Shown here piece by piece: positions 1 through 40,289 of a stretch of 40,289 bases of DNA. Made by a program: the position numbers and the translations under genes. The notes beneath the pieces are model-generated. The model worked only from the letters and a program-made list of their open reading frames with translations. It did not search any database and was not told the DNA's origin. The first letter of the stretch is position 1; the number at the start of each line of letters is the position of its first letter. Where the stretch lies: positions 510,603 through 550,891 of the forward strand of contig JAAOMT010000518.1 of NCBI GenBank assembly GCA_016748015.1. Direction: 5' to 3'. Origin of the DNA: Geosiphon pyriformis uo1. Taxonomy: Eukaryota; Fungi; Glomeromycota.

Positions 1-34
1 GTTGTTGTTCTATTATAATTATTGGTTCTAAATT

Positions 35-1369
35 TCAGGGAATATCTTCAGGATTAATTAAAGAGGAATGTGTACCAATTTGTGGAATTAATGTTTCAGA
101 ATTGTTTCTGGAATGATAGTGTTTCAATCTGTCTCCATGTGCAACTTTTGCTAGTATTTTATCATCAAGTCTTAACTTGTATGATCCATTGCCTAGAATT
201 TCGTGAATATAAAATGGTCCATCCCATTTGTTTTCAAATTTCCCACTCCATTGTTTTTTAGTCTTAGTTTTGTGTAAGAGAACTTTATTTTCAACTTTAA
301 ATTCATTGGTAATAGGTGGTAATTTGTTGTTATGTTTTTCTTTTTGTTGAGCTTGGGAATGTTCAATATAAGTTGCTGCTATTCTTTTTTTTCCTTCCAG
401 TGTACTAAAAAGAGTATAGGCCCTTCTTTGGAGTGTTTTTTGAAAGTTTTCATCATTGATTGGTTGCACTGGGTAAGTTTCTACTATGAAATTAATTGAT
501 AATGTTGCTGTTCTTCCATAAGTAAGATCAAATGGTGTGTGTTTTATAGTATCTTGTTTTAGCATTCTGTATGCTAGTAACACTGATGGAATAAAAATAT
601 CCCATTCCTGCTCAAAGTCTGTTGAGACTTTGGCTAAATATTCACACAATATTCTGTTGAAACGTTTTACAAGTCTATTTGTTTAAGGGTGATAAGGTGA
701 TGATAGAGGTCTTTTGACATTAAACTGTTCACAAATTTCTTGTATCAAGTTGTTCACAAAATGTGTTTCTTGATCAGATAAAAGTTCAATTTGGCATCCA
801 TGTCTACAAATAATGTCTTCATAGATGAAATTTGCTACTGATTTTGCATCTGCTCTTTGGATAGCTCTAGCTTTAAGCCATTTGGTAAGATAATCTACTG
901 CTACTGCAATATAGCAATTTCTTTGGGTTGTGATAAGTAATGGTCTAACTAAATTAATTCCAACTCTGTCAAAAGATTGTCCAACTTTGATTGGATTTAA
1001 AGGTTCTGTGGGGCGAGTTTCTTCTTTTCTTTGACAACTATCACAAGATTCTACATATTGTCAAATGTCTTTTTGCATGTGAGGCCAAAAATAATGTTCA
1101 AGAGTTTTTTGAATTGTTCCATCTCTTTCCAAGTGTGCTGAAAAAGAATTTGTGTGCATGTTGTATAGAATTGTTTCTTTTTCATTTTCTTGTACTAATC
1201 TGAGTGATTGGTTTGAGTTTTTATGATTTTTGTAATAAATTTTGTTGTGGTATATAAAATATTGTTTGGATTGGTGTTGTAATCAATGTTTTTCACTTGG
1301 AAACCAATTTTCTGGCATGATAAAAGTTTCCAAATAGTTTTTGATGTTGTTGTAGTTTTCTGGATCCAT
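35..1369 (-). pseudogene. Integrase of element A (separate ORF, premature stops)
   Basis: Starts ACAACA-ATG (MDPENYNNIKNYLET), in frame with ORF 35..649. Has HHCC-like CRSCDSCQ, core DLV/DYLTK/SDQ and C-terminal KWDGPFY. The TGA at 35-37 is probably premature: IP*NLEPII matches IPRDLEPIV in B. Confidence 0.9.
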
Positions 1370-1425
1370 TGTTGTTGATTTTGTAGTTTGTTCTGCTGTT
1401 AAGTTTATTGGTGTTGATGTTGGTA

Positions 1426-4400
1426 TTAATATTGTCTCATCTTTGAGAGGCTGTTAACATTAGTGTGTATTTTTCCTGGTTTGTGGTGTACAATATATTT
1501 GTAGTCTGCTAAAAAGTCATTCCATTGAAACTGTTTGGCACTTTGTTCAGTTTTCTTTTTATTGAAAATGTTTAAGAGCCCAGATAATTGTGGCAGTTTT
1601 TAATTCAGTTAAGCCGTATTTTAGTTCTGTTGGTTTGAGTATTCTACTAGCATAGATGATGATTTGTTCTTACCCATTTTCATCTAATTGTGATAAGATA
1701 ACACCAAATACTATATGTGAAGCATCAGTAGCTAATTGGAACTGTTTGTTGAAGTCTGGGTAAGCAAGAACTGGGGCTGTTGTCAATTTTGTTTTGAGAG
1801 TTTCAAAAGCTTTTTGTTGTTTTTCAGTCTATTTGTATGGCATGTTTTTGTTGGTAAGATAATTGAGTGGTTTGGCAATTTCTGAAAATTCTTTTATGAA
1901 TTTTTGATAGTAAAAGGCTAATCCTACAAATCCTCTTAGTTCTGTGGTATTTCTGAGAGTTTGAAAGTTTTTGACAGCACTGATTGTTCCAGGATTTGGT
2001 TTGACTCCATTTTTGCTAACAATGTGTCCAAGGAAGATTAAGCTTGTTTTTCTAAAGTGACATTTTTCAATGTTTAACTTCAATCCTGCTTTTTATAATC
2101 GTTGAAAAACTTTTTATAGGTGGATAAAATGAGTCTCAAAGCTTGGTGAGTATACATCAGTGTCATCAAGATAAACAACTACTGATTGCCACAAGAGTCC
2201 TTCATATACAACATCCATAAGTCGCTAGAATGTTGCTGGTGCATTGCAGAGTCCAAAAGGCATAATATTAAACTCATAGTTTCCTTCCTGAGTGGTAAAT
2301 ACTGTTTTGGGTCAGTCTTTTGGGTCCATTTCGACTTGCCAGTATCCACTTTCCAAGTCTAAAGTTAAGAAGAACTTGGCTTTTCCTAGAGCATCTAGCA
2401 TGTCATCAATTCTTGAAAGAGGGTAGGCATCTCTAATTGTTATACTGTTCAATTGGTAATAGTCAACACAAAATCTGATTTTTCCATTTTTCTTTTTGAC
2501 AAAGACTACTGGTGAGGCCCAAGAACTTCTTGATGGTTGAATCAATTTGTTATTGAGCATTCTCTGGACTTCTTCTCTAATGAATTGGTGACTGGCAGGT
2601 AGCACTCTGTAAGCTTGCTAACATTTTGGTAGAGTATCTCCTGTATGGATCTGATGTTAAATGATATCCATTTTTCCCAAGTTATTGTTGTCTTTTGCAA
2701 ATATATCTGCAAATTCAGCTATCAATTGTTTCAATTGTCTTTGTTGTTGAGGTTCTAAGGGACCCATGTTGATATGAGAGAGTTTTTTTTCCAAAAGATG
2801 ATAGTTTTCAGTGGTGGGAATGATATTTGGATTTGGGAGTAGAGTGTGTCTTATAATTTCGATAAAATTAGAGACAATTTGAGGGTTTTCATCTTGAAAA
2901 ATATTGCTGTGTATGATTCCAATCTCTAATTTGTTTAATAAGACAATAAAGTAATTATTGGGATTGTAGAATATAACTCGAAATTTTTTCATTTCTTTGG
3001 GAATATAAACGTTTGGAATTGAGATTTTATGCTTCAAACAGATTTGTTTATTGGATTCAAAGATTTGTTAAGTAGTAGTGGGTTTTGAGCAAGTGTAAAT
3101 TTCGTAATGTTCTCCAAAAGTTGAAATGGTAATTGGTTGAGAAAGTTGAAGAATCTGGTAAGATTCATTTTGTATTTTAAGAGCTATGTTTATTAAAACT
3201 GTAAATCATTTAGTTGAACCGAAATCTTGAGTTCTTCTTTCACTTTTTCCCAATTGTTCTCTGTTGTTAACTGATTGTAGATCCAAAATATTGATTAAGG
3301 ATAGGTAAATTGCTTAAGCAATTTTTTCAGCATGTTCAATCTTGAATGGTTTGTCTGTTTCATTCTGCAATATGATGGTAATGTCTCCAGTGTATCCTGC
3401 ATCTATAACTTCTTCTTTAATATTAATTCCTTTGCTTGCCAATGATGATCTGGAGGCAATTTGAACCATTGCTCCAGGTGGAATTTCAAGAGTGATTTTG
3501 AGATTGATTTTTGTCAAAGACTTTGGTTGAAGAACCAAAGTATCTTTTCCTGGATATCTTAAGTCATATCCGGCATCAATTTTGTGTGCTTTTTCTGGTC
3601 TGATTCCTTGACCATGGTTGTCAAAATATTTAAGTTGTAGAGTTGGTTGCTTTTCAAGGAGATAGATGAGAGTGGTTGGTAGTTCTTCTACTAGTTCAAA
3701 TACTCTAAATTCAATTTCATTTTTATCATTCTCATCTGGCAGAGGAATGCTAAAAGCATAACATTCTAAACACTATTGGTCATTACAAGGCATAACATAT
3801 TCTTCACACAATTGAATGTTTATTTGCTCTAATCATTAAATTTGAGCTTTTTTGGTCGAATATGTGTGGCTTGCAATTTGGTGGTAGGTTTCTACTTCAT
3901 CTTCATAATCAAATCCAGCTAATTCCATGGTATACTCAATGTATTCAGCTTCTTTCATTTGGTGGACATCTTCTTGTGTGGCTCCATTGATCAATACTAT
4001 TGCTAGGTCAAAAATCATTTCAGCATCATGAGGATAGTAGTAAAGTTTATTGAGAGCACTATTGTATGCTGCATCAAATAGTGTTCCTCTTCTGACTTTT
4101 TCCGAAATTGCTAGAGCATATTGACAAGTTTGATCACATACTCCTCCTCTCATTGCAACATCAATCCAGTTGCATTCTTCTGATAGCATATCTCCACATG
4201 TAAGGCAAGGTGTGTTGTCCTATTTTTCACTTCTTTTTGGAGATCCAAATCGTTCTCTATAGCATGCTTTGTAAAAGTAATAGGTATGAGTTTTATATTT
4301 CTCTTCTGGAGAAATACATGCTCCCATTGATGAAAGTTTTTTGTTGCAATCTTTGCATTTGAGTGGAATATAGGGTGGTTGTTTCTGTAGTTCTGGTGTA

Positions 4401-6986
4401 GAATATCTAACTTTCTTCCATCTTCTTGATTTTTCAAAAATCTCCTGTTCTGTTTCTTCAGCCCAATTAGATGTTGATCCAAGAGCCATGTAGGTTTCAG
4501 TAAGTGGCATTTCTTTTTTTTCTTCAAATTCAAATACTGGAGCTTTTTCTGATTGTTTGTTAAAAGTACTACAGGTTGCAGGTACTATGGTATATTGTTC
4601 TTGGTATGAGATTTTAAGTTTTTGAGTTTTCCAGTTCAGGTTTGCATTGGCCTTGAGAAGCCAATTATTTCCGATTAGAGCTTGGTATTAGGGTGCATCT
4701 ATAACAAGAACTTTAACTGGAATGGTAATTCCATTAATTGAAAAAAGGAAATCATCAATTTCTCCTACTGGAGTCTTCTTTATACCATCAGCTGTAACAA
4801 TAACTGTTTGAGCTGGTCTGTCTATGTTTTGTTTAAGTTGTTGCATCAGCTGGTAAGTGATGATACTTCCAGCTAATCTACTATCTAAGATTAAGCGAAT
4901 GGGTTTTTTTTCCACTGTAGCTTCTGTGTACATAGCAGTAATTGCTTTCTGTTCATTGACTGCTGCATTACTAAGCAGAAATGGTGATTCATTTGCTTCA
5001 AATTCGAATAGAAATATATCTGACAGATTGGCATTTTGGGCAATTTGAGCTGATGGAATGGTGTGGTTGGAAGGGTTTGATCTTGGTGCTGCAACTTCAC
5101 CTTCAAAAAGTGCAGTTTGTTGAAAATCCGATTTCTCTGGTATTGTAAGATAACTGGGTTAAGTATAATAGTAATTGGGTCTTTGCTGACCAGAATTTCG
5201 AAGAACCAACTGGTTATTTAAATTGATTCTGTTGTTGTTACTCTGCAATTGATTTTGGGATGTAAATTGGTTATGTTGAACCAATCTTCTTGTTGGTATT
5301 TGATATTGTTGAGTGGGTGGTGTCTGATATGGCTGAATTGATAAAGATTGCTGATATTGTTGCTGCATTGGTTATAGAGCTGGTGGATAGTAACTGTTTT
5401 GATTTTGTGGTCTTGGTGAATAATAGATTGGTGGTGGAGATTAGTAATAAGATTGTTGTGGTGAAGAGTAATGTTGATTACTCCTGTTTTGTTGGTCTCT
5501 TTGTAATTTCCTACAATCTCTTTTCCAGTGTCCTGGAATTCCACAATAATGACAATTTTGAGGTTGGTTGTTAGATAGTAATCCAAAATTGTTTTGGTTG
5601 CATTATTGTGGGGGTTGATATCTTTGTGGTTGTTATTGCTGTTGTTGTTGGTTTGTGAAGTAGCTTTCAACCTTTTTTGTAAGTTGGTCTATCTTCTCTT
5701 TAGCTGCTAAGCTGGTTTCTCCAATTGCAAGGTTTACAAGCTTGGTGTAATTTGCTTTTTCTATTGCCATTTTATAGCTCTTTGCATGTCTAATAGCAGT
5801 TGCTAAGTCTGCTGGAGCATGTGAATGGACTTTCTTAATCAGTTTGTCTTTTAACCCTACTATAAACTAATCCAAAATTTGAGCATCAGAATAGTAGTTA
5901 TTAGTTTCCAATTGTCGGATTCGTCTGAGAAGTTTGTTAAATCTTCTAAGATAAGTCATAACAGTTTCAGATGTTTCTTGTTTGATATTGCAAAAGCAGT
6001 TTCTGAGAGTGATAGAGGTATTGTTATCAGTGAATTGTTGTAGAAAAGCATCTTTGAATGCTTGCCAGTTTTCAAATGATTCTTCTAAATTTTCAAAACC
6101 ATTTTCCTGTTGTTCCTTGGAGAAAGTAGGGAATTGCTTTAAGCATTCTTGCTGCAATCCAACCATTTGCATCTCCTGCTTTTTGAACTTTGTCAAGTCA
6201 TTCTTAAGAACTGGTATTATTGTCTTTACCAATAAATTCTGGGATTTTTGCAATATAAGCAGTTGCCATTTTTTCTTTGTTTTCTGTAATTTCTTCTGGT
6301 TCTGATTCAGTTTTTTTACTTTCCAAGCTTTCTGAATGATTATTTTTGTTTTCCTATAAGTAATCAATGATATTGGCACTTGTTGATATTGGTTTTTGTT
6401 GTTGAGTAGGATTTCTAGGTGACTGAAAATCTTCTGGTCTGAAAAAATGGTTAAGTAGTAAACTTGGTGTTTGTAATTGAACAAGTAAAATTAAAAATAG
6501 TGTAATAAAAAGTGGTAATTTAACACTGGTTCCTTGTTCAGGTGTTTGCAAGTGTTTGGCAGTTGTCTTTGATAGTATTGGAGTGTTTGGAGTGGTTCTT
6601 AAGTATTGTTTCACTTTTTGTTTGCCTCTGTTGCTTGTCTCTGTTTTTGATTCAAAGTTAAAAGAGTATTTGGGCTGTACTAGGTATTTTTCTTTACAGT
6701 ACTTAATAATATTAAAATTAAGTTCTTGGAAGTAGGTAGCAAGTGTTTCACTGTTCAGGTCTTCTGTTCCCAATTGTGAATAGTGCACTAAATTATTGTA
6801 GAGGTTGCTTCTAACTTCTGAAATGTTGTAGTTTTCAAAAAGATAATTGTTGATACGATTTTCAATATATTGGTATACTGATTTCTTAACAACTTCAATT
6901 TCGTCTGGAATGTTGAATCTTTGCTTGCAGTGAGTGTAAATTGACTGATGATACTCTAGAGTTGTTGTGTCTGGTGTGGTTGCCAC
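1426..6986 (-). pseudogene. Gag-Pol polyprotein of A (N-extension, Gag, PR, Cys-rich module, dUTPase, RT, RNase H), decayed
   Basis: Fragments include LILDSRLAGS (PR), IASRSSLASKG/IDAGYTG (dUTPase), SSWASPVV..RFCVDY, LDLESGYWQ, YLDD (RT) and ATDAS (RNase H). There is a stop at 1426-1428 after RNase H. Confidence 0.92.
3215..3640 (-). pseudogene. dUTPase domain of element A
   Basis: Motifs DAGYDL, ASRSSL, IDAGYTG, KIA(Q>stop) and RRTQDFGST. Confidence 0.9.
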
Positions 6987-7013
6987 TTTGAATTTGTTGT
7001 TGCTGTGTTATTT

Positions 7014-7029
7014 TCATGGAAGAACACCA
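7014..7029 (-). promoter_or_regulatory. Primer binding site of A
   Basis: TGGTGTTCTTCCATGA lies 2 nt after the LTR end; C has TGGTGCTCTTCCACGG. The priming tRNA cannot be assigned firmly (TGGTGCTC could fit Thr or Ile). Confidence 0.8.
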
Positions 7030-7031
7030 AA

Positions 7032-7601
7032 TGTTACCAGAGGTTTTTGGTCTCTTTTTTTGAATGCTGTAACTGTCTGTTGGTTGCAAATTCACGTTTT
7101 CTAGAAGTAGTTGAACCTCCAATAACTGAATTTATCTTCAAATTATCTCCTATAATTTGAACTGCTGGGCTTATAAGTAGAATGGCCAATTCCTTGCCAG
7201 TTACTTTATGTAGTTATATTGTAGTAAATGTCAACTCTTTCCCAAGAATTGCTTGTCTGGAAGCTCACTAAAAATGTGTAGTTACTTTGCTGTAAAAGTC
7301 AACTCTTCTACAAAAATCTTGTCTGTAGGCTATCCTAATAATTGTAATAAGAAAAGAAAAGAAAAATAAAAAAAATGTAAAAGAAATAGGATTTTATCAA
7401 GGGAAACGTTTTTTATCCAGGCTTGGAGTTACTAACAGTTTACTGAAATTGGTAGCTAATCAATTTCAAAACGTTAGTTGGGTTTTGAGGATTTTCCAAG
7501 TGCAATAATTAAAGAATTTGGTTTTTTGAATTTATTTAATATTTATTTTTTTTTGTGTGTGTAAGAATAGTTCTAAGTAATAAATCTAAAATAAGATACA
7601 T
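7032..7601 (-). repeat. 5' LTR of A, R/U5 part (split by insertion of B)
   Basis: Reverse complement matches ~33790-34354 of the C LTR and ends in ...GGTAACA. Confidence 0.9.
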
Positions 7602-8473
7602 TGTTATGGTTTAAGAATTTAGCAAAAGAATCATAAAAATAATACAAACTATTCAATCATAATATAGTAATGATTAACATAGTAGCAAACACCATCTCGC
7701 AATAGTGGCAAGCACCAGTTCATAATAGCAGCCAATACCAACTGGTGATAGCAGCAAACACCAGATTGAAATATCAAAAAGAAAGTATTACAATGTGTTT
7801 TCTCATAGAACTACAAACATGTATATATACAATAGCTTTAATATTGGGAAAAAACAATCAAGTAATAAAAATTATAACTTATCAAGCAATAGATCCAATT
7901 TTATCCAACAAACTCCACTTTAAATCATACATTCAAATTAAATATCCCAAGAAACTTTTAAATCAAAAAGAAATGAAAAAAAATATTTAAAACTGAATTA
8001 TCACAACCCAAAGTATTAAGAAATTTACTTGTATTATTTATTGAATGAAACTATCATTCATCAACTGAATCTCTTGGAAGAATAATTCTTGATCAAGATT
8101 ATTCATATTGTTACTAATTGATAAAAGCTTTATTGTAAGAATTAGGAAAAGCACTAAAGGCCATTAACATTCTGTGTTTCTAGATTAGAGAAACACATCA
8201 GGTAAATGCAAAGATAGCCTCAGAGAAGACCCCAGACAGTGAGTAGATTTCAGTTCAGCCTCTGAGAAGAAGTACATAAACACACACAACAATCAAAAAT
8301 TGAAGAATAACTTACATCACAACATTAAAAAGAAAGTCTTCAGTATAACAGTGACATTATCACACAAATAGAATTGAGGAACTCACAAAAGACTGATTGC
8401 AATTAAAATGGGATATCAGCAATTAAAATGGGATATCAGCAATTAAATATAACAAGAAAACCATCCTGTAACA
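7602..8473 (+). repeat. 5' LTR of B (872 bp)
   Basis: TGTTATGG...CCTGTAACA; about 95% identical to 16753-17626. Confidence 0.97.
7679..7770 (+). repeat. Four degenerate 23-bp tandem units in U3 of the B LTR
   Basis: atagtagcaaacaccatctcgca / atagtggcaagcaccagttcata / atagcagccaataccaactggtg / atagcagcaaacaccagattgaa. Confidence 0.75.
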
Positions 8474-8475
8474 TT

Positions 8476-8490
8476 TGGTAAACCTTACAA
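8476..8490 (+). promoter_or_regulatory. Putative primer binding site of B
   Basis: TGGTAAACCTTACAA lies 2 nt after the LTR end. It differs from the PBS of A, C and D; tRNA unassigned. Confidence 0.7.
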
Positions 8491-8555
8491 GGAAAGAAAA
8501 TCAAAAAGAAAATAATAATTAGCAATAATTCATTGCTAAAAAGGAAGAAACAAAA

Positions 8556-11500
8556 GTGGCGACAAAAACCCTTAATCTTACTGTTCTTGAATTCTGCTGT
8601 GCTATTTACACACAAAATTAAAGTGATCTTGGATTACCAGAAAAGTGTTGTCCAGCAGAATCTGCTCTCACTTATTATATCAATGCCAGAATAAATCATC
8701 ATATAGGAAAAGAAAAATCACACAATGCAAAACTTGGATTGTATAAAGAATTATCACAATACACTACAAAAGAAGTAGCAGTAATAGCCACAACTATTGT
8801 CAAAATCCATTGAGAAATTGAGCAATATGCCAACAAAAATTTTCCAATATTCACAGAAAACACTAGGGAACGTGCCAACAAAACCAGAAAAAATTTAGAA
8901 ACTAATCAGGAAAGTAACCAGCAAAAACTAGGAACACCTGCTCAAACACCAAAAAAAACTGTCATTCAATCAATAAAGAAACAATGTATTTATTCACCAG
9001 AAGATAAATTATACCATTTTTCACCAGAAAATAAGATACAAATTCCATTAGGAGCTGCATCATCATCAACATCAACTCCACAAATGCCAAAAACTCCTAG
9101 TTATACTGATAAAATTAAACAACATAACTGGGGAGACATACCAATTACAGGAGGATATTCATCACTATTCTAAAACCCTCTTTTTCAGCCAAAATTTAGA
9201 ACAGGGTTTGAAAACCATGAAGAGGAGTCTGAATCGGAATCCGAAAAAAAGACCAGCAAAAAAACAATCACAAGACCAGTCACTGGAACAAGCAGCCAGT
9301 CTAGAAACCAAGAAACTTGTGATCAAAAGAAAAAACCGGATATAAAAGAAGCCAACTTTAAGAACACTCAAAGAAATATCATCCTACCTCCTCTTAGACC
9401 AATAAGCCCACCAGCAGAAAACGGCAACAAAATGGCCACATCATACATTACAAGACTAACAGATTTTTTAGGAGAGGAAGAAGAAATGGATATGCACACG
9501 TGGCTCAAAGAAACACAAAAAGCTATCCAGGCAAATAATTGGAATAACCAAAGAGCAATTCAAACATTACCTTTCTTCCTAAAAGGCACAGCCAACTTGT
9601 GGTATCAAAGTCTGGAAACAAAACCCACAAGCTTTGCTGAATTTAAAAATGCACTCCTAGAGTATTTTAGCAATCCAAACACTATAATCCAACTACAAAA
9701 CAAATTCAATACTATCAAGCAAAATACTGGTGAAACTGTCACCCAATACCTTGCTCGATTCAATTGAATTTGCCATCAGATTGAAGTGATTGAACAAAGA
9801 TACTACACTGATCCTCAGGTTTTAAATCAGTTTATTAGAGGATTAAAAAGCAGCATTTTAGGAAGAGTACACCCTGCCTACCCTAATTCCTTACCAGAAG
9901 TTATTACGCTTGCCAGAGTCTTTAAATTGGCTGAGAAAGAAGCTAACCATAGTCAAATGGTTAACATGGTAATGGAGAAAAATAAGACAGAAACATTAAA
10001 GAAAAAAATAATGCAATTAGGGAAGGAACTCTCTAAGAAAATAGAAAGTTACCTCATCCCGGATCTGAGAAGAAATACATACCAACCACCCCAAAGATGC
10101 AGCCAGAAAGTCAGCGACAGTTGAAATAATTGCTTGTCATGCCAAGAATTCAGAACAAAAATGTGTGCCTGCCATTTTTGCAAATGCATAAAACATTTGA
10201 TTAGTCAATGTCAAATGCGAATAATACAAGAAGCACATGAAAATAATTACTACATGCCACCCCAAATGCTCAGAAACCAGTATATGCCAATACCACATCA
10301 ATATCCCACCACGTATCAAAATCAAGAAACTTACTAGCAATAGCCTATGATAGCCAACCCGAATTGGCATCCCAAGGCCTAAAATCAGCCCATGTGAAAC
10401 CAGAACACATTGGTCCAGAGAAATCCAAACTGTGCTAGAACCAATCAGCAAACCAATCCAAACTACCAAAATTATCAACAAATTTATCTTAATATACTGG
10501 AAAATCTAATTATCGAAAACAATGATGGTAAAAACATAAACAGAACCAAAAATTCCTCTAACAAATTGAGCCAGACAATACCACCAGCAGTTGTCACTGA
10601 AGATAGCAGCCTTGCAGCTATTTTTTCTTTTGAATTAGAGGAAAACGAGGCTATGTTCAATGGAGCAGCATTGGATGAAAAATGTCCAATCACTGCTATA
10701 TATACAGAAGCCACTGTAAACAATATCCCAATCAAACTTATCTTAGACAGCAGATTTGCTGGAAGCATCATAACACTTCAACTAGTAAACCAACTGGATT
10801 TCAAAGTTGATTGTGCTGCGACATTCCAATCATAACAGCCGATGGAAATACAAAGCTGCCTCATGGCAAAATCGACTCATTTTCTTTCAAAATTAACGGC
10901 ATAGTAATACCTACAAAAGTATTAGTAATAGACACTACACAATATCAAGCATTAGTAGGGAATGACTGGTTAACAAAAGCCAACACCATTCTAGACTGGA
11001 CCACTCAAGAGCTTCTGATCAATTATAATGGCCACCAGGCCAAAATTCCAGCCACCTGTGGCCATTTCTAAAAACCCAGCGCCAACCAAAGACCTACTTT
11101 CAAATTTGAGGAAAATCCAGCACTACCAGCCATCAAAACCTATCAGCTCTCTTGGGCTGATGACCAAAAAACAGGACTACCAACTGTACCAACATGGACC
11201 AGCAAAAAAAGATCCAAATAGAACCAGATAAGTTTACAAAGAAACCACTAGCAATGCAGACCAAAGCTAGAATGCTCATTTTGCAAGAAGAAACTCTTAT
11301 TTATGACTGCATGCAGCACACCAGACAAAGACCCAAGAAACCCCACCCATTACTATTGTAACCATTGTAACAAAGAAAAATATGGTTACCCAGAAAGACA
11401 CAGAAAATGGAACAAGGAACTATGCCTCGTTTGTAGAGAACCATTATCAAGAGAGTGCGACTAGAATAACATACTAGGCAGAAGAGGAACATGTGACACA

Positions 11501-14263
11501 ACTTGCCAATACACAATTCTCATCTGTGACTGGGTAAGAGGAGGAATACCATTCGAAGCAGTGTTCAATAGAGCATTAAAAAAACTACAGCACTACTCAC
11601 ATGATAAGAACAAGTTGTACAATACCACACAAACTAAAGTAAAAAAAGAAACCTCTGAAAAAATACGACGTTAGAAAGAGTCAACCGAAGTAGCTGACAA
11701 AGTTGCCAGCTACAACATGTTCGACCCAATGGACAAATTCCAGGACTACTACCAACAACTATGCCCCACTCGACAAGAGCAAGAACAATACCTCATCCAA
11801 ATCAACACTTACCTCTGTAAAAACTGTCTCATTCCATGCCAAAATTAGTGCTGTGAAGAGTGTCAAGATGAAAGAGACTTAGAAAGAAAAATGGAAATTA
11901 AGAATCAGCAGTTTCAAAATCAATCAATAAATTAACAAGACTCATCTGACAGTCCTGAGTCAGAAAAATTTGTAGTCTATACCAACCTAGAATAGGTGAC
12001 CGACATCCGATACTTCGACAATAGGCACTTAGAAATAATACCCGAAAGAGTCCATCCAACCAATACCAGATTCAATCTACATTATTTGGAAGACCAATCC
12101 ACAACATTACTACCCAGGAGCATCACCAAAATCGACCTAAAAATAGTGGTTGAAATTCTGCCAGAAATAATGGTTCAAATAGCATCACGATCAAGCCTCG
12201 CAAAAAAAAGAATAAGCGTTCAAGGAGGAGTAATTGACTCTAAATACACTGAAAATTTGATGGTTTTGCTACAGAACAATTTAGAAAAGCCTTATACCAT
12301 TGAATCTAAAGAAAAGATTGCACAAGCAATTTTCCTACCATTGGTAAAAATTGGGAAATTTATGCCAGTGGAAAATCATGAGGAATTGTCACAAACAACA
12401 AGAGGAACTTTTGGTTTTGGATCAACAGAAAAAGGAATTAAAGCAAATTTCACTGAAACAATAGAGGAAAAAGGTGAAGTAATTAAAAATGAGCAGTCCA
12501 TCATGCTCCTATCATATGGAAAATCAGAAATAAGAATAAAAAAGACAATTAAAGAAAAAGACCTAATATTTGAGCCCTACCCAGAAACTTGCCAACAGTT
12601 TCTCATAGGACTTACTAACCTTTTTATTCCAGTTGATAAAGTTCAATGAATAAAAATTTCTATCACAAACACCACAGAAGAACCCATCTACATTCCGGAA
12701 GATACCATCATTGGATACCTCAGAACGGAGCTAAAAAACGCATCAACACCACAAGAAATTCTAAATTTCCCAGAAATCATCTTCTACTGTGAACTCACTT
12801 CAATAAATTGGCAACAACTGTTAGAATGCTATCAATTTACACCAGAAGAATTGGCCAAATTAAACATTGGAACAATGGATCCTAACCAACAGCGATAATT
12901 AAAAGCATTAATTTTAAAATACTCTGATATATTTTCATAAAATGGCAAATTTGGAAGAACCAACTTGGTTCAACACCAAATCCCCACTAGAGACGCCAGA
13001 CCTGAAAAACAATGCACTTATCATGTTCCACCAATGGAGCATAATTTTATCAGAGAAGAAGTCCAAAGCATGTTGGAAAAAGAAATAATACAACCATTAA
13101 TAAGCCCATAGTCCTTACCAGTTGTTTTAGTAAAGAAAAAGAATGGAAAAATTAGATTTTGCGTCGACTATCGCAAATTAAACAGCAAAACAACCAAAGA
13201 CTCATACCCAATACCATTAATTGATGAAATCTTCAACGTTTTTGGAGGAGCAAAATGGTTTTCTACACTGAACTTGACCAGTGGGTACTGGCAAGTGAAA
13301 ATGGACCCAAAGGACAGACATAAAACAGCATTTACAACACAAAATGGCAATTATGAGTTCAATGTAATGCCATTTGAATTAACAAATGCTCCCGCGACAT
13401 TCTAAAAACTAATGAACATAATTTACTCCAGAATCCTGTGGCAATTCGTTGTTGTCTACTTGGATGATACAAATGTTTTCTCATTAAAATTCACGGATCA
13501 TCTCCAATATTTACAACAAGTTTTTGAGAGATTAAGACACACTGAACTTAAACTAAATCTAGAAAAATGTTTCTTTGGAAAAAATGAGCTAGCATTTTTA
13601 GAACACATAGTTGAAAAAGATGGAATAAAACCAGATCCATCAAAAATAGACAAAGTGAAAAATTTTCCAGTACCTCAAAACGTTTTAGAAGTTAGAAGCT
13701 TTTTAGGATTCGCATCTTACTACTACTGCTTTGTAGAAAACTTTTTAAACATCACCAAACCCCTTAATTACCTACTATCCAAAAATGTGAAGTTTAAATG
13801 GACTGAAGCACAACAAAAAGCTTTTAAGTACCTTAGACAAAAACTCATTGAATCACCAATAATGATCTATCTGAATTTTAACAAGAAATTCATTTTGGCC
13901 ACAAATGTCTCTAGAACTGGACTTAGAGCCATTCTGTCACAAAAAGATGATAATGAAAAAGAATGTGTAATCACTTATGTCAGCAGAAGTCTCAGTACAG
14001 CAAAACAAAACTAAACAGCACATGAACTTGAATGCTTAGCAGTAGTCTGGAGTTGTGTTTACTTTGACACATATTTACAGTACCAACCCTTTGAGATTAC
14101 CACAGATCATAGAGATCTGGTCTGGTTAAATAACAAGAAAGCACTAAAAAAAAAATACACCAGATGGTCACAAATGTTAATATCATATAATTATATTATC
14201 AAATACAAAGAAGGTACCAAAAATGCTAATGCTGACTGTTTGTCAAGAATGAGACACACATAA
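8556..14263 (+). pseudogene. Gag-Pol polyprotein of B (N-extension, Gag from ATG 9432, PR, Cys-rich module, dUTPase, RT, RNase H)
   Basis: Knuckle CHFCKCIKHLISQC, LILDSRFAGS, IASRSSLAKK, RGTFGFGST, VVVYLDD, ILATNVS and ADCLSR, then TAA at 14261-14263. Many premature stops and a frameshift near 10825. Confidence 0.93.
11996..12430 (+). pseudogene. dUTPase domain of element B
   Basis: Motifs 2-5 are recognisable (ASRSSL, GVIDSKYT, KIAQ, RGTFGFGST); motif 1 is decayed (TRFNL). Confidence 0.9.
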
Positions 14264-14292
14264 AAATCACCAACCTACCCACTACAACAACA

Positions 14293-15672
14293 ATGAACAA
14301 CCACTTTTACAAAAACCTCAGCCAATACTTGGAAACACTACAAATAGACAAAGAAATACCAGTAAAAGAGCTAATTAAGCTCCAAAAATTAGCAAAACAT
14401 TATTTCATCCAAAATCACATACTTTATTACTGGAATTGACAAAATCCAAATAATTCATTAAGAGTTATAACCACGGATGAAAAAAAAACTATCTTATTTA
14501 ACATGCACTCAGATATTCATTCAGGCCACTTTGGAAAAACAGCAACCATCCAACGTGCAACTAGCTGTTACTATTGGCCAAAAATAAGTTCAGACATAAT
14601 CCAATACATAAGAAATTGTGATCCATGCCAACAAAGAGGAGGAGCAAAAACAATGGAATTATTAAGACCAATAAAAGTTGGACAGCCATTTGACAGAATT
14701 GAAATTGATTTAGTTGAATTCTTACCAATAACAACAAGAAACAACCATTATATTGCAGTAGCCATGGACTATCTCACCAAATGGCCAGAAGCTAAAGCTA
14801 TTAAAACAGCTAATGCTATTTCTGTAGCTCAATTTGTACATGAAGACTTAATTTGCTGGCATGGATGTCCACAAAAATTGCTATCAGATCAAGGCACACA
14901 CTTTGTAAACAGCACCTTAAAAGAACTTAGCCAAAAATTTGGAATCAAGCGACCACTGTTATCATCATATCACCCTCAAACAAATAGATTAGTTGAAAAA
15001 TTTAATCACACATTATGCGAATCACTGGCAAAAATTAGTAACAAACATGAAAAAGAATGGGATTTGTTCATATCAGCAATACTATTAACATATAGAATAG
15101 TAAAACAAGATACTACACAATTCACACTGTTTGAACTAATTTATAGAAGAAAAGCCACATTACCAGTTGAACTTACTATCCCAACTTATCCAAGTGACAC
15201 TATCATGGAAGCAACATTCTAGGAAATACTACTTAAAAAAACATACAAATTAATGAGAACTTTAGAAAACAAAAAAAGAAAAGCAGCACAAAATATTGAA
15301 CAATCACAAGAACAACAAAAAGTGAAATATGATAACCAGTTACCAGATAATATAATTAGCTACAAAATTGGAGATAAAATATTGTTGCATTGTACAAATA
15401 TGGAAAAACAGTGGAGTGGAAAATTTGATCACAAGTGGGATGAACCATTTTATATTTACGAAATACTTGGAAATAGAGCATACAAGCTAAGACTAAATGA
15501 TAAAATATTAAGAAAAGCAGCACATGGTAACCAGCTGAAATTATATTACAGTAAACCAGTAATAACAACAAAAACACCCAGAATTGGAACACAATTACCT
15601 TTAATTCTACCAGAACAAATTCCACGAGATTTAGAACCAATAGTTTTAATTGAACATTATTCAAAAAGATAA
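14293..15672 (+). pseudogene. Integrase of element B (separate ORF)
   Basis: ACAACA-ATG at 14293 is in frame with ORFs 14503 and 15253. Has H..GH..CDPCQ zinc finger, IDLV/DYLTKWPEA/SDQG core and a GPY/F-like KWDEPFY. Confidence 0.93.
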
Positions 15673-16739
15673 TTAATCTTAGATCACAGCAAAAATAATT
15701 TAACAACCATAAAAATGCATACAAAAGATTCCAAAATAGCAGTCAAAATTAAAACAATGATACTTATTCCAGAAAACATCAACAATATAACTCAACAATT
15801 AGTTGAAAGCTTACAACATTAAAATCCGATCTGGAAATCACAGTTAATAGTTCCAAAATAACATACATAAAAAGAACAATAAAAAATCCAAAAACAAGAA
15901 AAAAACATAATTTTGAACCATATAATATTACCAAATATAACAACAAATTTATCAGCAAAGTTATTGAAAAATTAGAGATAGCATTGGGCAATACATTAAT
16001 AATAGAAGAAATAGAAANNNNNNNNNNNNNNNNNNNNAAAAGATTCCAAAATAGCAGTCAAAATTAAAACAATGATACTTATTCCAGAAAACATCAACAA
16101 TATAACTCAACAATTAGTTGAAAGCTTACAACATTAAAATCCGATCTGGAAATCACAGTTAATAGTTCCAAAATAACATACATAAAAAGAACAATAAAAA
16201 ATCCAAAAACAAGAAAAAAACATAATTTTGAACCATATAATATTACCAAATATAACAACAAATTTATCAGCAAAGTTATTGAAAAATTAGAGATAGCATT
16301 GGGCAATACATTAATAATAGAAGAAATAGAAATAAGTAAATTAACACCAAACACATTTAGCAACTTGAAAACAAAATTTCCAATTAATTACTGTTATTAT
16401 TAACTAGGAAAGCACTTGAACATACAAACATTATACTCAAAAGACTCAACTAGAGTGTTTGACAAAACAACTATCCAACTATTAGAACCTTTTATTGAAA
16501 AAACCAACACTATATTCCATTCAAAAACAGTTTACAGAATTTTCAAAGCATTTGAAAACTGTCACAAATTATTGTTGGACCTAACCATAAACATAATAAC
16601 AACCAACAGTATTGGATGACTTACCAACTCGCAATTTCAAGAATTACAACAACAAATTAATAACACAGTATTGAACCACTATAGTAACTTAGAATTTAAT
16701 GAAGAAATTAACTTCGATTTTGATGGAGCTCAATTTTAA
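15669..16739 (+). pseudogene. Putative ORF3 of unknown function between IN and PPT (contains an assembly duplication)
   Basis: About 250 codons in one frame once the gap duplication is removed. It is broken only by TAA/TGA codons explicable as CAA/CGA, and ends ...FDFDGAQF* at the PPT. A homologous ending is present in E. Confidence 0.6.
16018..16037. other. Assembly gap (20 N) flanked by an exact 295-bp overlap
   Basis: 15723-16017 is identical to 16038-16332. Confidence 0.95.
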
Positions 16740-16752
16740 AAGAAGGGGATAA
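16738..16752 (+). promoter_or_regulatory. Polypurine tract of B
   Basis: AAAAGAAGGGGATAA immediately precedes the 3' LTR. Confidence 0.9.
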
Positions 16753-17626
16753 TGTTACAGTTTAAGAATTTAGCAAAAAAATCATAAAAATAATACAAAC
16801 TATTCAATTATAATATAGTGCAGTAATAATCTTAGAAAGGTAATGATTAACATAGTAGCAAACACCATCTTGTAATAGTGGCAAGCACCAGTTCACAATA
16901 GCAGCCAATACCAACTGGTGATAGCAGCAAACACCAGATTGAAATATCAAAAAGAAAGTATTACAATGTGTTTTCTCGTAGAATTACAAACATGTATATA
17001 TACAGTAGCTTTAATATTGGAAAAAAACAATCAAGTAATAAAAATCATAACTTATCAAGCAATAGATCCAATTTTATCCAACAAACTTCACTTTAAATCA
17101 TACATTCAAATTAAATATCCCAAGAAACTTTTAAATCAAAAAGAAATGAAAAAGAATATTTAAAACTGAATTATCACAACTCAAAGTATTAAGAAACTTC
17201 CTTGTATTATTTATTGAATGAAACTATCATTCATCAACTAAATCTCTTGGAAGAATAATTCTTGATCAAGATTATTCATGTTGTTACTAATTGATAAAAG
17301 CTTTATTATAAGAATTAGGAAAAGCACTAAAGGCCATTAACATTCTGTGTTTCTAGATTAGAGAAACACATTAGGCAATTGCAAGGATAGCCTTAGAGAA
17401 GACTCCAGACAGTGGGTAGATTTCAGTTCAGTCTCTGAGAAGGAGTACATAAACACACACAACAATCAGGAATTGAAGAATAACTTACATCACAACATTA
17501 AAAAAAAAACCTTTAGTATAACAGTGACATTATCACACAAATAGAATTGAAAAATTCATGAAAGACTGATTGCAATTAAAATGGGATATCAGCAATTAAA
17601 TATAACAAGAAAACCATCCTGTAACA
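16753..17626 (+). repeat. 3' LTR of B (874 bp)
   Basis: TGTTACAG...CCTGTAACA. Relative to the 5' LTR it has a 22-bp extra segment and one fewer 20-bp tandem unit. Confidence 0.97.
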
Positions 17627-17630
17627 ACAT

Positions 17631-18071
17631 TTTTTTGAAGAGAAAAGCTTTTTTTTATACAACTTGTTATAATACTAGTCTATGAACTTGCACTTTTTCT
17701 CTTTGCTCAAATTTCAGCGAACTAAAAATACACTTTGATGAGCTACAAGTTATTTCACTGAACTATTGATTAATTTGGATGAACTATTCATAATTTCGGC
17801 AAATTTTTATAAATTTTGGCGAATTTCATATAAATTTTGACAAATTTTTGTAAATTTCAACGAATTTTAGAATATTACAAAGTTCAGGGTATTGTGTAAT
17901 TTGATCATCTTACTTTCTGTTGTACTAATTGGATTATTAATTGAATCGTGATATGTGATAAATTGATTAAATAATAAGTGATAATTTGAAATGATATTAA
18001 TATACTAATTAATTATAGGGATTATAAGGGTAATTTTATGCTAATTACTAACTAAAATTCTACTGGTAACA
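17631..18071 (-). repeat. 5' LTR of A, U3 part
   Basis: Joins 7601 seamlessly once B and one TSD copy are removed. Reverse complement matches 33376-33790, starts TGTTACCAG, and has a TATA-like box at 17653-17659. Confidence 0.9.
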
Positions 18072-19150
18072 ATGCTGAACTGATTTTGTAATCTGATAAG
18101 AATGTTAGGGTCACAAAAATATTGCAGAAAGACAAGTTTAAAGGCAGCAAAGTCAGTTGGTTTCTCTGCAAGGCTTTGATACCATAAGTCTGTGGTTCCG
18201 GTCAGAAAGAATAGCAACGCTTAAATGGTTCTATCATTATCCCAATTGTTGATAGTGATGGCTTTCTTGGCTTTCACGATTCATATATATGTGTTATCTT
18301 CTTTACCAGAGAATTTCTCTAATTTGGCAATATTTTGGTAAGCCATGATCTGGTGAGTAGGTGGAGTCTTACTGATTGATGCCAAGAGGTTTGGTGTTTA
18401 CATACTAGAGTGTTCTCCTAGTGCTAATTCTGGTTGTTTCCCTTTGTTAATTTTCTCAATGGACTGAAGGATAGCTGTTTCTTTGGAGGGGGTGGTTGAT
18501 GATTTAGTCAATGGTTGGGTTGGTGGTGGTTCCCACGTCAATGTATTTCTATCTGTTTTGTTAAGTGTTGAGGTGAGATTTTCAAACAATGATCCATATT
18601 CTCCTAATGATTTGGTCCAACTATGTTGATTCCAAGGGTGTGGATTTCCAGGAGTGCGTGGTGTTTCCGACTGAGTTTCCAGAGGTGGATTGAATACAAT
18701 TCTACTTTGGAGTATCTGATAGTATAATGAGATAGTTGAAGAGAAAAACCTTGGTTTTTTGTTGACCATGGACTTGGCTTGGGCAGTTCCAGGGTTGTTG
18801 AATTCGTCTTTGTATTTGTCAAGGTCAGATTCCACTGGTTGTTGTACTTGAGAGAATCGTTTTGCTATGTAATATTTAATGTCTATATTAATTATGCGCA
18901 GAGTTTCAGTGATTGCTTGGGTAGTCGTGGCTGTTGAGTACTCTAATAAGCTTTGATGGATTTGTTCTTGCAGTCTTTCTGTGTTGGTTGCACAGCCTAA
19001 TAAGCAGTCAATTTTTGCATTGATATAGTTACAAAAATTACTTTCTGTGTAAGCAGTTTTTGTTGGTATTCCTAGGTCTTTTTGAAAGTATTAAAATAGT
19101 GCTCTTCCATATGGAGAGTAGTTCTTTTCTACTGTTTTAATAGTCACCAC
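18072..19150 (-). pseudogene. N-extension plus Gag N-terminus of D
   Basis: GTG at 19150 is in frame with ORF 18398..18835 and with the Gag ATG at 18346. YINAKIDCLLG resembles B YINARINHHIG. Confidence 0.8.
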
Positions 19151-19211
19151 TTTTGTGTATTTCTGGGGTGCTCTGTCTCTGTGGATTTATAACCTCACAA
19201 AGAGCACCAAA

Positions 19212-20261
19212 TGTTATGGATAAACTTGGTGGGTAATAGAAATAGTAACGTTTGGTGCTCTCAATTATTAGTAATGTATCTTCCACATAATTCTGTTGGC
19301 TTAGTCTCGATTATCAGTCTCTGAAGGTCTATTTTTGGATGTGAATTTACCTATTGAGTTCTTTGATTATAAGGCACAGAGTTCATTTTTCATTGATTGC
19401 AACGTTTTCTGTAAATGTAAGCTTTTCTTCTCCGAGCTAACAAGCATAGTCATTAGGATCTGGCAGTGTCTTTTTGCCTTTTTGGTAAGCTAACAAGATA
19501 ATATTAATATCCAAAACTTAGGGAGAGTCTCCCTCTTTTATCAGGCTATCATGAAGTCTATTTTCAGACAGTTAATTTTACTATATTGCTGCTCCACAAA
19601 AGAAAATAAGAAAGAAAGAAAAAGAAAGAAAAGAAAAGATAAATTAGTATTGTCAATCACTGTAATCAAGAGTGATTGGTCCAAGTTGTTAATAGTTCAA
19701 GGCAGTTATGCTAAAAACATCTGTTCTGGAATGAAGGTATGAAACAATGGTCAATTCACATAAATTCCACACAGTTCAAGAACATGAATTCATGATTCTG
19801 ATTTCTCAATAATTGATTTATTTCAGAAGATAAATATGGAATATAATAAATAAGAAGGAGGTATGAATATTTGTTTTTTGTCTAGTGGTTTGTATCTATC
19901 TCTGTCTTTTTCTATCTTTTACCACTATTCGCTTTTATACATTTTTTTGGTTTTATAAGATTGCTTCTGATTGTTTTATTATTGCTAACTATTGCTTTGT
20001 TATTTCTGTTATTGCTTTGTTCTTTTACGTTATTACTAGTTATCCTATGTTATAACATGTTATCTAGTGTTATTTTGTGTTATCCCATGATGTAACATGT
20101 TATCTTGTACTATTCTAAGTTATAACACATTATTCAACATTATTGCATGCTATCCTAAGTTATAATGCATTATTCAACGTTATTGTATGCTATTCTATGT
20201 TATGTCATGTTCTGGTTATGTTTCTTCATAACTTTAGATCAGTTTTTCTACTTGGGTAACA
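19212..20261 (-). repeat. 5' LTR of D (~1050 bp)
   Basis: TGTTACCC...CCATAACA termini, TATAAAA at 19933-19939 and internal tandem repeats. Confidence 0.82.
20035..20215. repeat. 10-bp-period tandem array in U3 of the D LTR
   Basis: TGTTATnnnn-type units (e.g. tgttataaca tgttatctag tgttattttg) with a higher-order ~40-bp repeat. Confidence 0.75.
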
Positions 20262-28218: not shown

Positions 28219-28425
28219 CTCAATTTATTATTTAATTATTAAATAAAAACCTATTATATTAACTAAAAAAAAATTATAAATTTTATTTAATATTTTTTTT
28301 TTTATTGTTTAATGAGTGCAGCCCAACCACTATCTAGTATACAGATACAAGCTAAGTGAATCTAACTAAATGTGGCTTATGCATTTGCTACATGTGACTA
28401 GCCACTGAGGCCAATCTAGGCAACA

Positions 28426-33375: not shown

Positions 33376-34354
33376 TATTACCAGACGAAATTAGAGATAT
33401 TATTTAGCATGAAATTATCTTATAATTCCTATCATTAATTAGCATATATTATCGTTTCAAATTATTACTTATTACATTAGCAAAAATGTCCAAAATTATC
33501 ATTTAATTAATAACCCAAATTGTACACAACACAAATGTAACCTAATTGCAATGATCAATCATGCAATACCCCAAATTATATAACATTCAAAAGTTCACCG
33601 AAATTTGTAGAAATTCGCCGAAATAATTGATAGTTCACCAAAATATCTAATAGTTTGCAGAAATAACTTATAGTTTGCCGAAATGTATCTTTAGTTCAGC
33701 AAAATTGTAGAAAAGAGCAAAGTTTAAGTTCATGGAATAGTGTTACAACAAGTTGTATAAAAGAAGAGCTTTTCTCTTCAAGAAAATATATCTTACTTTA
33801 GATTTATCACTTAGAACCATTTCTACACATACAAAAAAAATAAATATCAAATAATTTAAAAAACCAAATTCTTTAATTATTGCACTTAGAAAATCCTTAA
33901 AACCCAACTAACATTTTGAAATTGATTAGCTACCAATTTCAGTAAACTGTTAGTGACTCCAGGCCTGAATAAAAAATGTTCCCTTGATAAAAACCTATTT
34001 CTTTTACATTTCTTTTATTTTTATTTTTCTTTTCTTATTACAATCATTAGAGTAGCCTACAGACAAGATTCCTGTAGAAGAGTTGACTTTCACAGCAAAG
34101 TAACTACACATTTTTAGTGAGCTTCCAGACAAGCAATTCCTGGGAAAGAGTTGACATTTACTACAACGTAACTATATAAAGTAACTGGCACGAAATTGGC
34201 CATTCCACTTATAAGCCCAGCAGTTCAAATTATAGAAGATAATTTGAAGAGAAAATTCAGTTACTGGAGGTTCAACCACATCCAGAAAACGTAAATTCAC
34301 AGCAAACAAGCATTGACAACATTTAAGAAAAGAGACCAAAAACCTCCAGTAACA
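33376..34354 (+). repeat. 5' LTR of C (979 bp)
   Basis: TATTACCAG (decayed TG)...CAGTAACA. It has ~20-bp tandem units at 33590-33710, TATAAAAG at 33756-33763 and a ~65-bp direct repeat at 34061-34180. Confidence 0.9.
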
Positions 34355-34356
34355 TT

Positions 34357-34372
34357 TGGTGCTCTTCCACGG
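34357..34372 (+). promoter_or_regulatory. Primer binding site of C
   Basis: TGGTGCTCTTCCACGG lies 2 nt after the LTR end. Confidence 0.82.
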
Positions 34373-34399
34373 AAACAACACAGCAAAAACAACTTCAAA

Positions 34400-40018: not shown

Positions 40019-40070
40019 AAAAACACAAAAACCAACACTCAACTTAACCAACCAAAAGAGCCAACAAACA

Positions 40071-40289
40071 ATGAATTCGGAAAACTACAATGATCTCAAA
40101 CAATATTTGGAAACATTAACAATTCCAACAGATCGGTCTCCAAATGAAAAACATCGACTACAACAACAAGCCAAACAATATTTTCTACACAACAACATTA
40201 TTTATCATCAAAATTTCAAAAACCCAGACAAACCACTCAGATTAATACAAGAACAGAAAAAAGAGACTATATTATACAACATGCACTCA
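40071..40289 (+). CDS. Start of the integrase ORF of C (partial)
   Basis: AAACA-ATG MNSENYNDLKQYLET...YNMHS matches the IN N-termini of A and B; it is out of frame with RNase H. Confidence 0.85.
   Translation, partial: MNSENYNDLKQYLETLTIPTDRSPNEKHRLQQQAKQYFLHNNIIYHQNFKNPDKPLRLIQEQKKETILYNMHS

Follow-up and report, generated by a model that had tools for sequence, protein, structure and literature searches.

Introduction

In the textbook long terminal repeat (LTR) retroelement, integrase enters the particle as part of Gag-Pol. Here we describe an element, B, from the glomeromycotan fungus Geosiphon pyriformis, in which Pol ends after RNase H (RH) and integrase is encoded by an open reading frame (ORF) with its own AUG. 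B lies in a stretch of 40,289 nucleotides (nt) of contig JAAOMT010000518.1, hereafter the window, to which coordinates refer unless another locus is named. Canonical Ty3/Gypsy elements, including the dUTPase-bearing PosPlaTy3-5, Phanerochaete and Tuber elements, share with B the LTRs, the 4-bp target-site duplication (TSD), the pattern of a primer-binding site (PBS), the polypurine tract (PPT), the order protease (PR), reverse transcriptase (RT), RH, integrase, and the site of the dUTPase (PMC2864245, PMC6431247; here and below, papers cited by accession number are represented by excerpts, and statements that rest on them extend that far). The clade of B differs from these elements in an integrase that lies outside Pol, the lack of a chromodomain, a Gag extension with a weak start, an additional ORF (ORF3) and varied recoding among Gag, PR and RT. 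The Ylt1-like and SN_1006 lineages are, like B, fungal Gypsy elements without a chromodomain; in the account of PMC2864245, most families have one or two ORFs and a separate integrase is unmentioned.

Two other systems invite comparison. Ginger1 elements encode a free integrase of the Gypsy type, about 400 residues long, with a GPY/F motif, TGT termini and 4-bp TSDs, but they have terminal inverted repeats and no RT, whereas the integrase of B is part of an LTR element and lies behind RT-RH (PMC2836005). Judged by eye, a start of the integrase near a YPYY-like motif is a further likeness. Troyka elements share LTRs and domain order with B but have CG...CG termini, a 3-bp TSD and mostly a single Gag-Pol, and they are found in animals only; we considered them as a precedent for a separate integrase and rejected them, since the excerpt describes no separate integrase in Troyka (PMC12440569). 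Kuafuorterviruses are likewise animal elements (PMC11673190).

Results

Element B is a full-length but dead retrotransposon

Element B is a genuine full-length but dead Ty3/Gypsy-type LTR retrotransposon, whose features are collected in Table 1. Its LTRs, of 872 and 874 nt, are 95.3% identical, with transitions accounting for 38 of the 40 mismatches, and it is flanked by a 4-bp TSD (ACAT). The LTR end reads TAACA-TT-TGG in all four copies present in the window. Pfam matches were obtained in B for Gag, dUTPase, RT, RH and integrase and, together with motifs and the comparison of the LTRs, they bear out most of the layout proposed in an initial annotation of this DNA: the LTRs, PBS, PPT, Gag, PR, dUTPase, RT, RH and integrase. 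That annotation had also called B complete, which is correct for the outline, in which all of the parts are present, but not for the reading frames. These carry 25 in-frame stops (14 in the pol frame, nine in the gag frame and two in integrase) and one frameshift, in PR, and the sequence contains an assembly gap. C>T/G>A changes abound in B. A query with B Pol retrieved 114 proteins, of which most are gene models from Geosiphon pyriformis; identity reaches 70-77% in the top matches, and by this measure the nearest kin of B come from the same fungus, in which LTR elements make up 41.2% of the genome (PMC11952901).

Table 1. Features of element B, other elements of the window, and copies of the RNA motif in metagenomic loci (L numbers)
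Feature	Position	Strand	Remarks
Left TSD, ACAT	7598..7601	+	right copy 17627-17630
5' LTR of B, TG...CA	7602..8473	+	95.3% identity to 3' LTR
PBS	8476..8493	+	tRNA-type by pattern (TGG, 2 nt past LTR); same TAACA-TT-TGG junction in A, D, E
Gag extension, 292 codons, opening AAA-GUG-G	8556..9431	+	stops 10 and 12 codons upstream, in frame
Gag (capsid)	9432..10700	+	strong-context AUG at 9432; Pfam Retrotrans_gag, Ty3_capsid; end approximate
Aspartic protease	10701..11080	+	frame lost near 10826-10835 by a frameshift; limits approximate; recognized in B from position and motif, in E from Pfam
Cys-rich module (about 215 residues)	11255..11893	+	core helical in the model; neither Pfam nor fold search gave a match
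dUTPase	12005..12442	+	Pfam E 5.8e-19
Conserved beta-rich PR-RT spacer domain	12458..12871	+	coding
RT and RH	12941..14263	+	TAA at 14261-14263; Pfam; stop without variant in B-family contigs
Pol-integrase spacer, 29 nt	14264..14292	+	G-free, A/C-rich, unstructured
Stand-alone integrase ORF with own ATG	14293..15672	+	H2C2, DDE core, SH3/GPY-F-type end; Pfam, relatives
Decayed ORF3 region of B	15716..16739	+	includes 295-nt duplication and 20-N gap
PPT	16738..16752	+	sequence
3' LTR of B	16753..17626	+	pairs with 5' LTR 7602-8473
Element A/C	6..18071	-	5' LTR 18071 to 7032 hosts the B insertion; GUG 6986; integrase ATG 1369
Element D, fragment	18072..19216	-	comprises LTR end, PBS, GUG at 19150 and the beginning of Gag; A inserted into it
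Element E	33376..40289	+	same family as A; GUG 34400; integrase ATG 40071
RNA motif copies	L003:586-623, L005:186-222, L006:4464-4500, L009:491-528, L014:176-213		
RNA motif copies	L019:9-45, L022:493-529, L025:20-57, L002 variant about 24-64		

Pol ends at RNase H and integrase has its own start

In B, Pol terminates in SRMRHT at position 14263 and the integrase ATG follows at 14293, 29 nt beyond the TAA, as the initial annotation had proposed. The same succession of stop, spacer and ATG is present in two further elements of the window, A (spacer of 56 nt) and E (52 nt). A and E are 76.8% identical over 6,080 nt and thus belong to one family, while B shares 64-70% identity with them in RT and integrase, so that within the window the junction is seen in two families. 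Parts of B had been said to recur in A/C, D and E as clearly divergent families; the recurrence is real, but A/C and E are a single family and D is a gag fragment.

A priori, the split might have arisen by decay of a standard single Gag-Pol-integrase ORF, as B bears a heavy load of C>T/G>A changes and the connection between RH and integrase is also broken in some distant loci (10 of the 33 considered below). In 607 B-family contigs covering 14100-14500 neither the Pol stop nor the integrase ATG shows a variant at or above 10%, and there is no indel, whereas at the premature stop within B's integrase roughly half of the depth has a sense codon. The contigs derive from one DNA run, possibly the sample of the window itself, and they test copies rather than hosts. 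A wider comparison is provided by an integrase query that retrieved 684 proteins of 252-804 residues, a length window outside which fused forms fell. Among the best 120 of the 684, 99 begin with a Met within three alignment columns of that of B, 17 begin at a later Met, two are longer and two are partial. Proteins of Rhizophagus irregularis and R. clarus are among these stand-alone relatives, and the integrases of R. irregularis include intact ones (GBC53574.1).

DNA context was obtained from 80 metagenomic loci. Among the 25 closest to B, RH is found upstream in ten, and in all ten the integrase is separate, lying in frame 0, +1 or +2 relative to Pol in two, three and five cases, respectively, with spacers ranging from -8 to 727 nt. 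In 23 of the 33 distant loci with RH upstream, integrase is fused; in the remaining ten the linker is broken or IN-first elements stand in tandem, and by our reading the aligned start is absent. The integrase ATG of L017 overlaps the Pol stop, and in L005 a start likewise overlaps the stop upstream of it. Two intact dUTPase-bearing Pols, P0466 and P0459, terminate at RH. The invariance of the junction among copies and the intact relatives with a separate integrase make decay exceedingly improbable as the origin of the split, and for the clade we reject it.

Alternatively, integrase might be joined to Pol by a programmed frameshift or by stop readthrough, with the AUG incidental. Recoding does appear to be used elsewhere in these elements: an in-frame TGA-CTA lies between PR and RT in three loci (L001:870-875, L013:3358-3363, and L017 at 481-486 or 1585-1590), L008 has a -1 overlap at TTTAAAA (L008:2898-2919), and both A and B could be read past the Pol stop in the -1 frame. 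A general mechanism of this kind is hard to reconcile with the use of all three frames, with spacers of up to 727 nt, with in-frame stops just ahead of the ATG in several loci and with a Met at the same alignment column, and no slippery heptamer was seen in A or B. Given the conserved junction, the intact relatives and the mixed frames, we reject this explanation as well, as highly unlikely. A TGA-TCA was also noted between Gag and PR in L017 (recoding sites L017:481-486 and 1585-1590). We conclude that a Pol ending after RH, followed by an integrase with its own AUG, is an inherited layout. The view that the design is inherited was already that of the initial annotation, and it is sustained by the other B-family copies, which keep stop, ATG and GUG, by the ten of ten close relatives and by the RT clade described next.

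The separate-integrase elements form a clade

In a tree of RT-RH sequences 13 separate-integrase elements form one clade with support of 100/99 (49 rows, 13 of 62 having been left out as short, near-duplicate or long-branch). A second, quick tree under a mixture model places 15 separate-integrase rows together with an SH-aLRT of 96 (22 of 64 rows left out on the same grounds). The clade takes its place in a polytomy with Gypsy-type rows in these trees, which lack named references as well as an outgroup from Copia, BEL or retroviruses. There is no supported link to the single badnavirus row, and the IN-first loci form a separate clade (95/95). Two observations count against a single, well-bounded clade. 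L028 (1-2666) has a separate integrase yet falls outside the main RT clade, possibly as a second origin of the split, and in the integrase tree the base is unresolved and the clade is not recovered.

B has the attributes by which Ty3/Gypsy elements are recognized, namely TG...CA LTRs, a 4-bp TSD, the order PR-RT-RH-integrase, a Ty3-type capsid and RVT_1, and its clade departs from the canonical Gypsy definition in that integrase is not the C-terminal domain of Pol. As judged from sequence, the clade is a variant of the Ty3/Gypsy organization. The C-terminus of integrase carries GPY or GPF in relatives; the motif is degenerate in B, and a Pfam match to SH3_Tf2-1 is below its cut-off. Pfam detected no chromodomain in the integrase ends of B or A, nor is there one among the precomputed domains of 120 listed integrase relatives, and on this ground B is not a chromovirus. 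The Gmr1 type, in which integrase precedes RT, is ruled out by the location of integrase downstream of RH. Ginger1 is ruled out by the LTRs and RT of B and its lack of terminal inverted repeats, and Troyka by TG...CA termini and a 4-bp TSD as opposed to CG...CG and 3 bp (PMC12440569). An env-bearing Gypsy is excluded, as ORF3 has no transmembrane segment; for the same reason the earlier description of these elements as retrovirus-like was overstated.

An AUG-poor extension precedes Gag

A GUG at 8556 and the AUG of Gag at 9432 share one reading frame. Each of the four copies in the window has AAA-GUG-G 47-84 nt past the point at which the LTR-end motif begins, and neither the GUG nor the upstream in-frame stops of B vary at or above 5% in 478 B-family contigs. 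The extensions of the window families are homologous at the protein level. Between A and E, the extension displays a third-position excess (48/42/68, p 0.03), as does every Gag-Pol module, while the LTR is without periodicity. These comparisons indicate that the upstream Gag extension is coding.

The extension is also poor in AUGs. Counting all frames, A has none where 9.0 are expected, E 1 (9.1), B 6 (11.5) and D 5 (9.6). Five relatives have none at all: L013 (11.6 expected), L004 (7.6), L006 (7.8), L003 (5.3) and L015 (6.9). For comparison, Gag-Pol contains 19-21 AUGs per kb. These relatives open the extension with an AUG in poor context, with a pyrimidine at -3 and A at +4, and the AUG-free run from there to the capsid-proximal Met extends for 1074 nt in L013, 576 nt in L006 and 498 nt in L004, reaching the contig end in L003 and L015. 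A weak first start followed by an AUG-poor run would be expected to permit leaky scanning, and we consider it likely that a long and a short Gag are made in this way. Weighing against this, the deficits of B (p 0.06) and D are not significant singly, and the extension of L008 is not AUG-poor (43 AUGs, with 29.6 expected). One of B's six AUGs is polymorphic among copies, and we infer that the others fit CpG decay. In L008 (1-1686) the extension exceeds 560 residues and is built of Cys-rich repeats.

Gene predictors joined LTR exons to the start of the extension in Geosiphon models, which raises the alternative that it is translated by splicing from an AUG exon upstream in the LTR, and not from the GUG. 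We regard this as improbable. AAA-GUG-G occupies the homologous position in the four window copies even though GTG accounts for 17 of 117 Val codons; in the relatives the corresponding site holds an AUG of weak context, for which no splicing is required; and a spliced start would not predict depletion of AUGs in all three frames. As for the non-AUG extension of the initial annotation, the GUG and the coding character of the extension were found as claimed, and initiation at a non-AUG codon is supported indirectly, through the AUG depletion. The arrangement resembles the glyco-Gag of murine leukemia virus, in which a weak non-AUG start lies upstream of Gag and in frame with it, with an AUG-free stretch between. 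The extension of B differs from glyco-Gag in having no transmembrane segment, the maximal 19-residue hydropathy (KD19) being 1.09 in B and 0.62 in E.

Spacers and an RNA motif ahead of integrase

Inspection of the sequence upstream of the integrase ATG revealed a 37-nt element common to eight loci, situated a few to about 15 nt ahead of the ATG. In seven aligned copies 63 of 63 cells are paired and three stem pairs have changed on both sides; the covariation score of 0.476 was reached by none of 500 shuffles. When 81 sources, the window among them, were searched with a covariance model, it recovered all eight copies and one further, held-out copy, L025, but no others. The nine motif loci all belong to one integrase subclade (99/94), together with Rhizophagus P0188. 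Rfam returned no match for the motif at E<=10 (11 loci), the motif pattern had no exact match in viral or prokaryotic contigs, and a hammerhead ribozyme, considered by eye, does not fit. This covarying 37-nt RNA structure before the integrase AUG of one subclade is new. B, A and E carry instead short A/C-rich spacers, that of B being unstructured; G-free stretches represent 1.5% of all 29-mers in B. The spacer of L013 (6706-7432) includes pieces that match portions of the motif exactly, as well as three short, hairpin-like CTCGAAAG repeats.

Whereas the layout, its conservation and the clade are matters of observation, the plan of expression is read from DNA only. Ten short Pol-integrase spacers contain one AUG where 6.1 are expected, and six spacers between integrase and ORF3 contain none (5.4 expected). 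Because spacers are AUG-poor and some starts overlap the upstream stop, we favor restart or internal entry of ribosomes. Specifically, integrase and ORF3 may be made from the same RNA by way of short spacers with few AUGs, A/C-rich in B, A and E and containing structured RNA in one subclade, a proposal to which we give even chances. Several facts tell against it. Reinitiation after an ORF of 5.7 kb is normally inefficient in eukaryotes. The AUG deficit of the short spacers is partly built in, as the choice of start excludes in-frame AUGs. Two spacers are long, that of L001 having 7 AUGs in 365 nt and that of L013 having 12 in 727 nt, and scanning reinitiation does not fit them. Neither B nor A nor E contains the motif, its folding is no better than that of shuffles (z -1.1 to +0.2), and the covariation controls are lenient, as the structure was named from the same sequences.

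Integrase and ORF3 might instead be translated from a subgenomic mRNA generated by an internal promoter or by splicing, as foamy viruses make Pol, in which case the motif would be a splice, processing or packaging signal. The long spacers of L001 and L013, the latter of 727 nt with 12 AUGs and a TATA-like TATATATATAAA run, would suit such an mRNA, as would the ordinary strong contexts of the integrase AUGs (purine at -3 in 15 of 19, G at +4 in 16 of 19, with one position mis-placed), and in eight of the nine copies of the motif the last letters are YAG, with the ATG following after a few nt. On the other hand, 10 of 12 spacers, those of B and E included, lack a YAG in the 40 nt closest to the ATG, the motif variant of L002 is without YAG, and the ATG of L017 overlaps the Pol stop. 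A subgenomic route is a serious contender, though in our estimation not the probable one, and the clade may use both full-length and subgenomic routes.

ORF3

An ORF of about 145 codons follows integrase in 10 close loci and often ends at the PPT. A profile of this ORF3 gathered 490 clusters at 50% identity, Gigaspora and Rhizophagus proteins among them, and 102 of 150 listed members were aligned. Met is present in 98% of rows that have a residue in the first column, the median pI is 8.6, and the conserved positions include several with Arg or Tyr. The hydropathy over 19 residues exceeds 1.8 in none of the 102, and is 1.18 in B's ORF3. The AlphaFold model is all-helical with a pLDDT of 95.5. 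Searches for relatives were negative within their scope: no consistent Pfam family among the 102 members, no match in PHROGs for four members, a best E of 0.46-0.47 against PDB sequences (where a hint of uS13 was not reproduced by fold search), nothing at E<=0.001 with Foldseek against PDB and viral structures, and no credible match with VIA (best Z 5.1, rmsd 3.2, 69 aligned). Look-alikes in the ESM Atlas were uninformative. The ORF3 family after integrase is new; the lack of a structural match does not prove a new fold. In L004 (2690-2716), L005 and L010 its C-terminus (F.G[A/T]...) overlaps the PPT and the start of the LTR, and B's ORF3 ends similarly (16720-16752, FDGAQF).

B itself has a region after integrase, as the initial annotation stated, but the length of its ORF3 is inflated by a perfect (100%) 295-nt duplication that flanks a 20-N gap (15723-16332) and is most likely an artefact of assembly (scaffolding). 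B's ORF3 is probably homologous to the family, with which it agrees by eye in position and motif order. Sequence comparison speaks less clearly: against the family profile it scores 9.7 bits, the best of 501 including shuffles, with the next shuffle at 9.2, and hhalign gives a probability of 3% (E 0.015). These values weaken the case for homology. In L001 no ORF3 precedes the LTR. A role for ORF3, predicted to be soluble and mostly basic, as an RNA-binding adaptor or reinitiation helper is a tentative suggestion.

Modules between protease and reverse transcriptase

The Cys-rich module and the dUTPase named in the initial annotation are both present. The former is conserved and coding in the Geosiphon families and in one intact relative, P0012; it has no Pfam match, and a fold search within a 628-residue model gave a best Z under 5. 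The dUTPase is recognized by Pfam, and the model of a Geosiphon relative superimposes on known dUTPases (Z 15.2, rmsd 3.7, 122 aligned); a dUTPase between PR and RT is already known in fungal Gypsy elements (PMC2864245, PMC6431247). The adjoining domain at 12458-12871 had been taken for a second, dUTPase-like domain, which is unsupported: hhalign against dUTPase yields 0.8%, the pLDDT of the model is about 53-63, the fold search was dominated by the true dUTPase, and the look-alikes in the ESM Atlas are eukaryotic proteins without names. None of the three modules has a convincing match in any of the metagenomic loci, and they are therefore extras of a sublineage and not clade-wide. Acidic, Cys/His-rich tails follow RH in L006 (3500-4441), L013 (4950-6705), L003 (2-544) and L009 (1-348), all in or near the motif-bearing subclade; they measure about 315 and 585 residues, have no convincing Pfam match and are not matched by the Cys-rich module.

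Other elements of the window

The shared LTR-end motif TAACA-TT-TGG allows the nesting in 7032-19216 to be read: B lies within the 5' LTR of A, and A within the gag of D. In E a single Gag-Pol frame runs to a stop at 40016-40018, and its protease reads through in one frame and matches Pfam Asp_protease_2. A fifth, heavily decayed Gypsy at 22179-24804 (+) has stops after RH, and its integrase begins about 200 nt past the RH match; it is compatible with the separate-integrase layout and too decayed to count. The region of about 28400-33200 (-) holds the decayed remains of a LINE-type (non-LTR) element, in which Pfam identifies RT and, at the C-terminus, RNase H; its N-terminal part looks endonuclease-like by eye.

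Discussion

A search of the literature found no description of a Gypsy clade with separate integrase; Repbase, GyDB and Dfam were outside this search, and the structure table of PMC2864245 could bear on novelty. The separate-integrase Ty3/Gypsy layout is thus apparently undescribed. The initial annotation, which knew its combination of features from no described Metaviridae clade, agrees with this outcome.

As a whole, the data are best accommodated if, in this clade, Pol ends at RH, integrase is a separate AUG ORF, usually with ORF3 after it, and a single RNA is read polycistronically, a reading that we hold to be somewhat the more probable. The first start, a GUG in the Geosiphon-type families and an AUG of poor context in their relatives, is weak and would let most ribosomes pass, and 0.5-1.1 kb without AUG would then bring most of them to the capsid AUG, resulting in long and short Gag(-Pol). 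Ribosomes would restart, or enter internally, at the AUGs of integrase and ORF3 on the full-length RNA. Free integrase, untethered from Gag-Pol, would be packaged separately. In foamy viruses and caulimovirids the enzymes are made and packaged independently of Gag, and caulimovirid Pol ends at RH; in the clade of B only integrase is uncoupled. A more ambitious version, which we offer as speculative, envisages a Glomeromycota-centered Metaviridae clade that translates one RNA like a polycistronic virus, with leaky scanning, UGA readthrough or frameshift, an RNA structure or A/C-rich spacer as internal start for integrase, and a new-fold ORF3 for reinitiation or integrase packaging; its free integrase would be a living intermediate to Ginger1 transposases or to integrase-less pararetroviruses.

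A clade with uncoupled integrase needs another route of translation and packaging, for which the RNA motif and ORF3 are concrete, testable candidates; if truly an internal start signal, 37 nt would be unusually small. Free integrases such as these have possibly been miscounted as Ginger DNA transposons in surveys that go by the rve domain and nothing else, as we infer from PMC5751038. In PMC2836005 the route from a Gypsy integrase to a free transposase was left open. The present clade, relatives of which occur in Rhizophagus and Gigaspora, supplies a plausible intermediate between the two.

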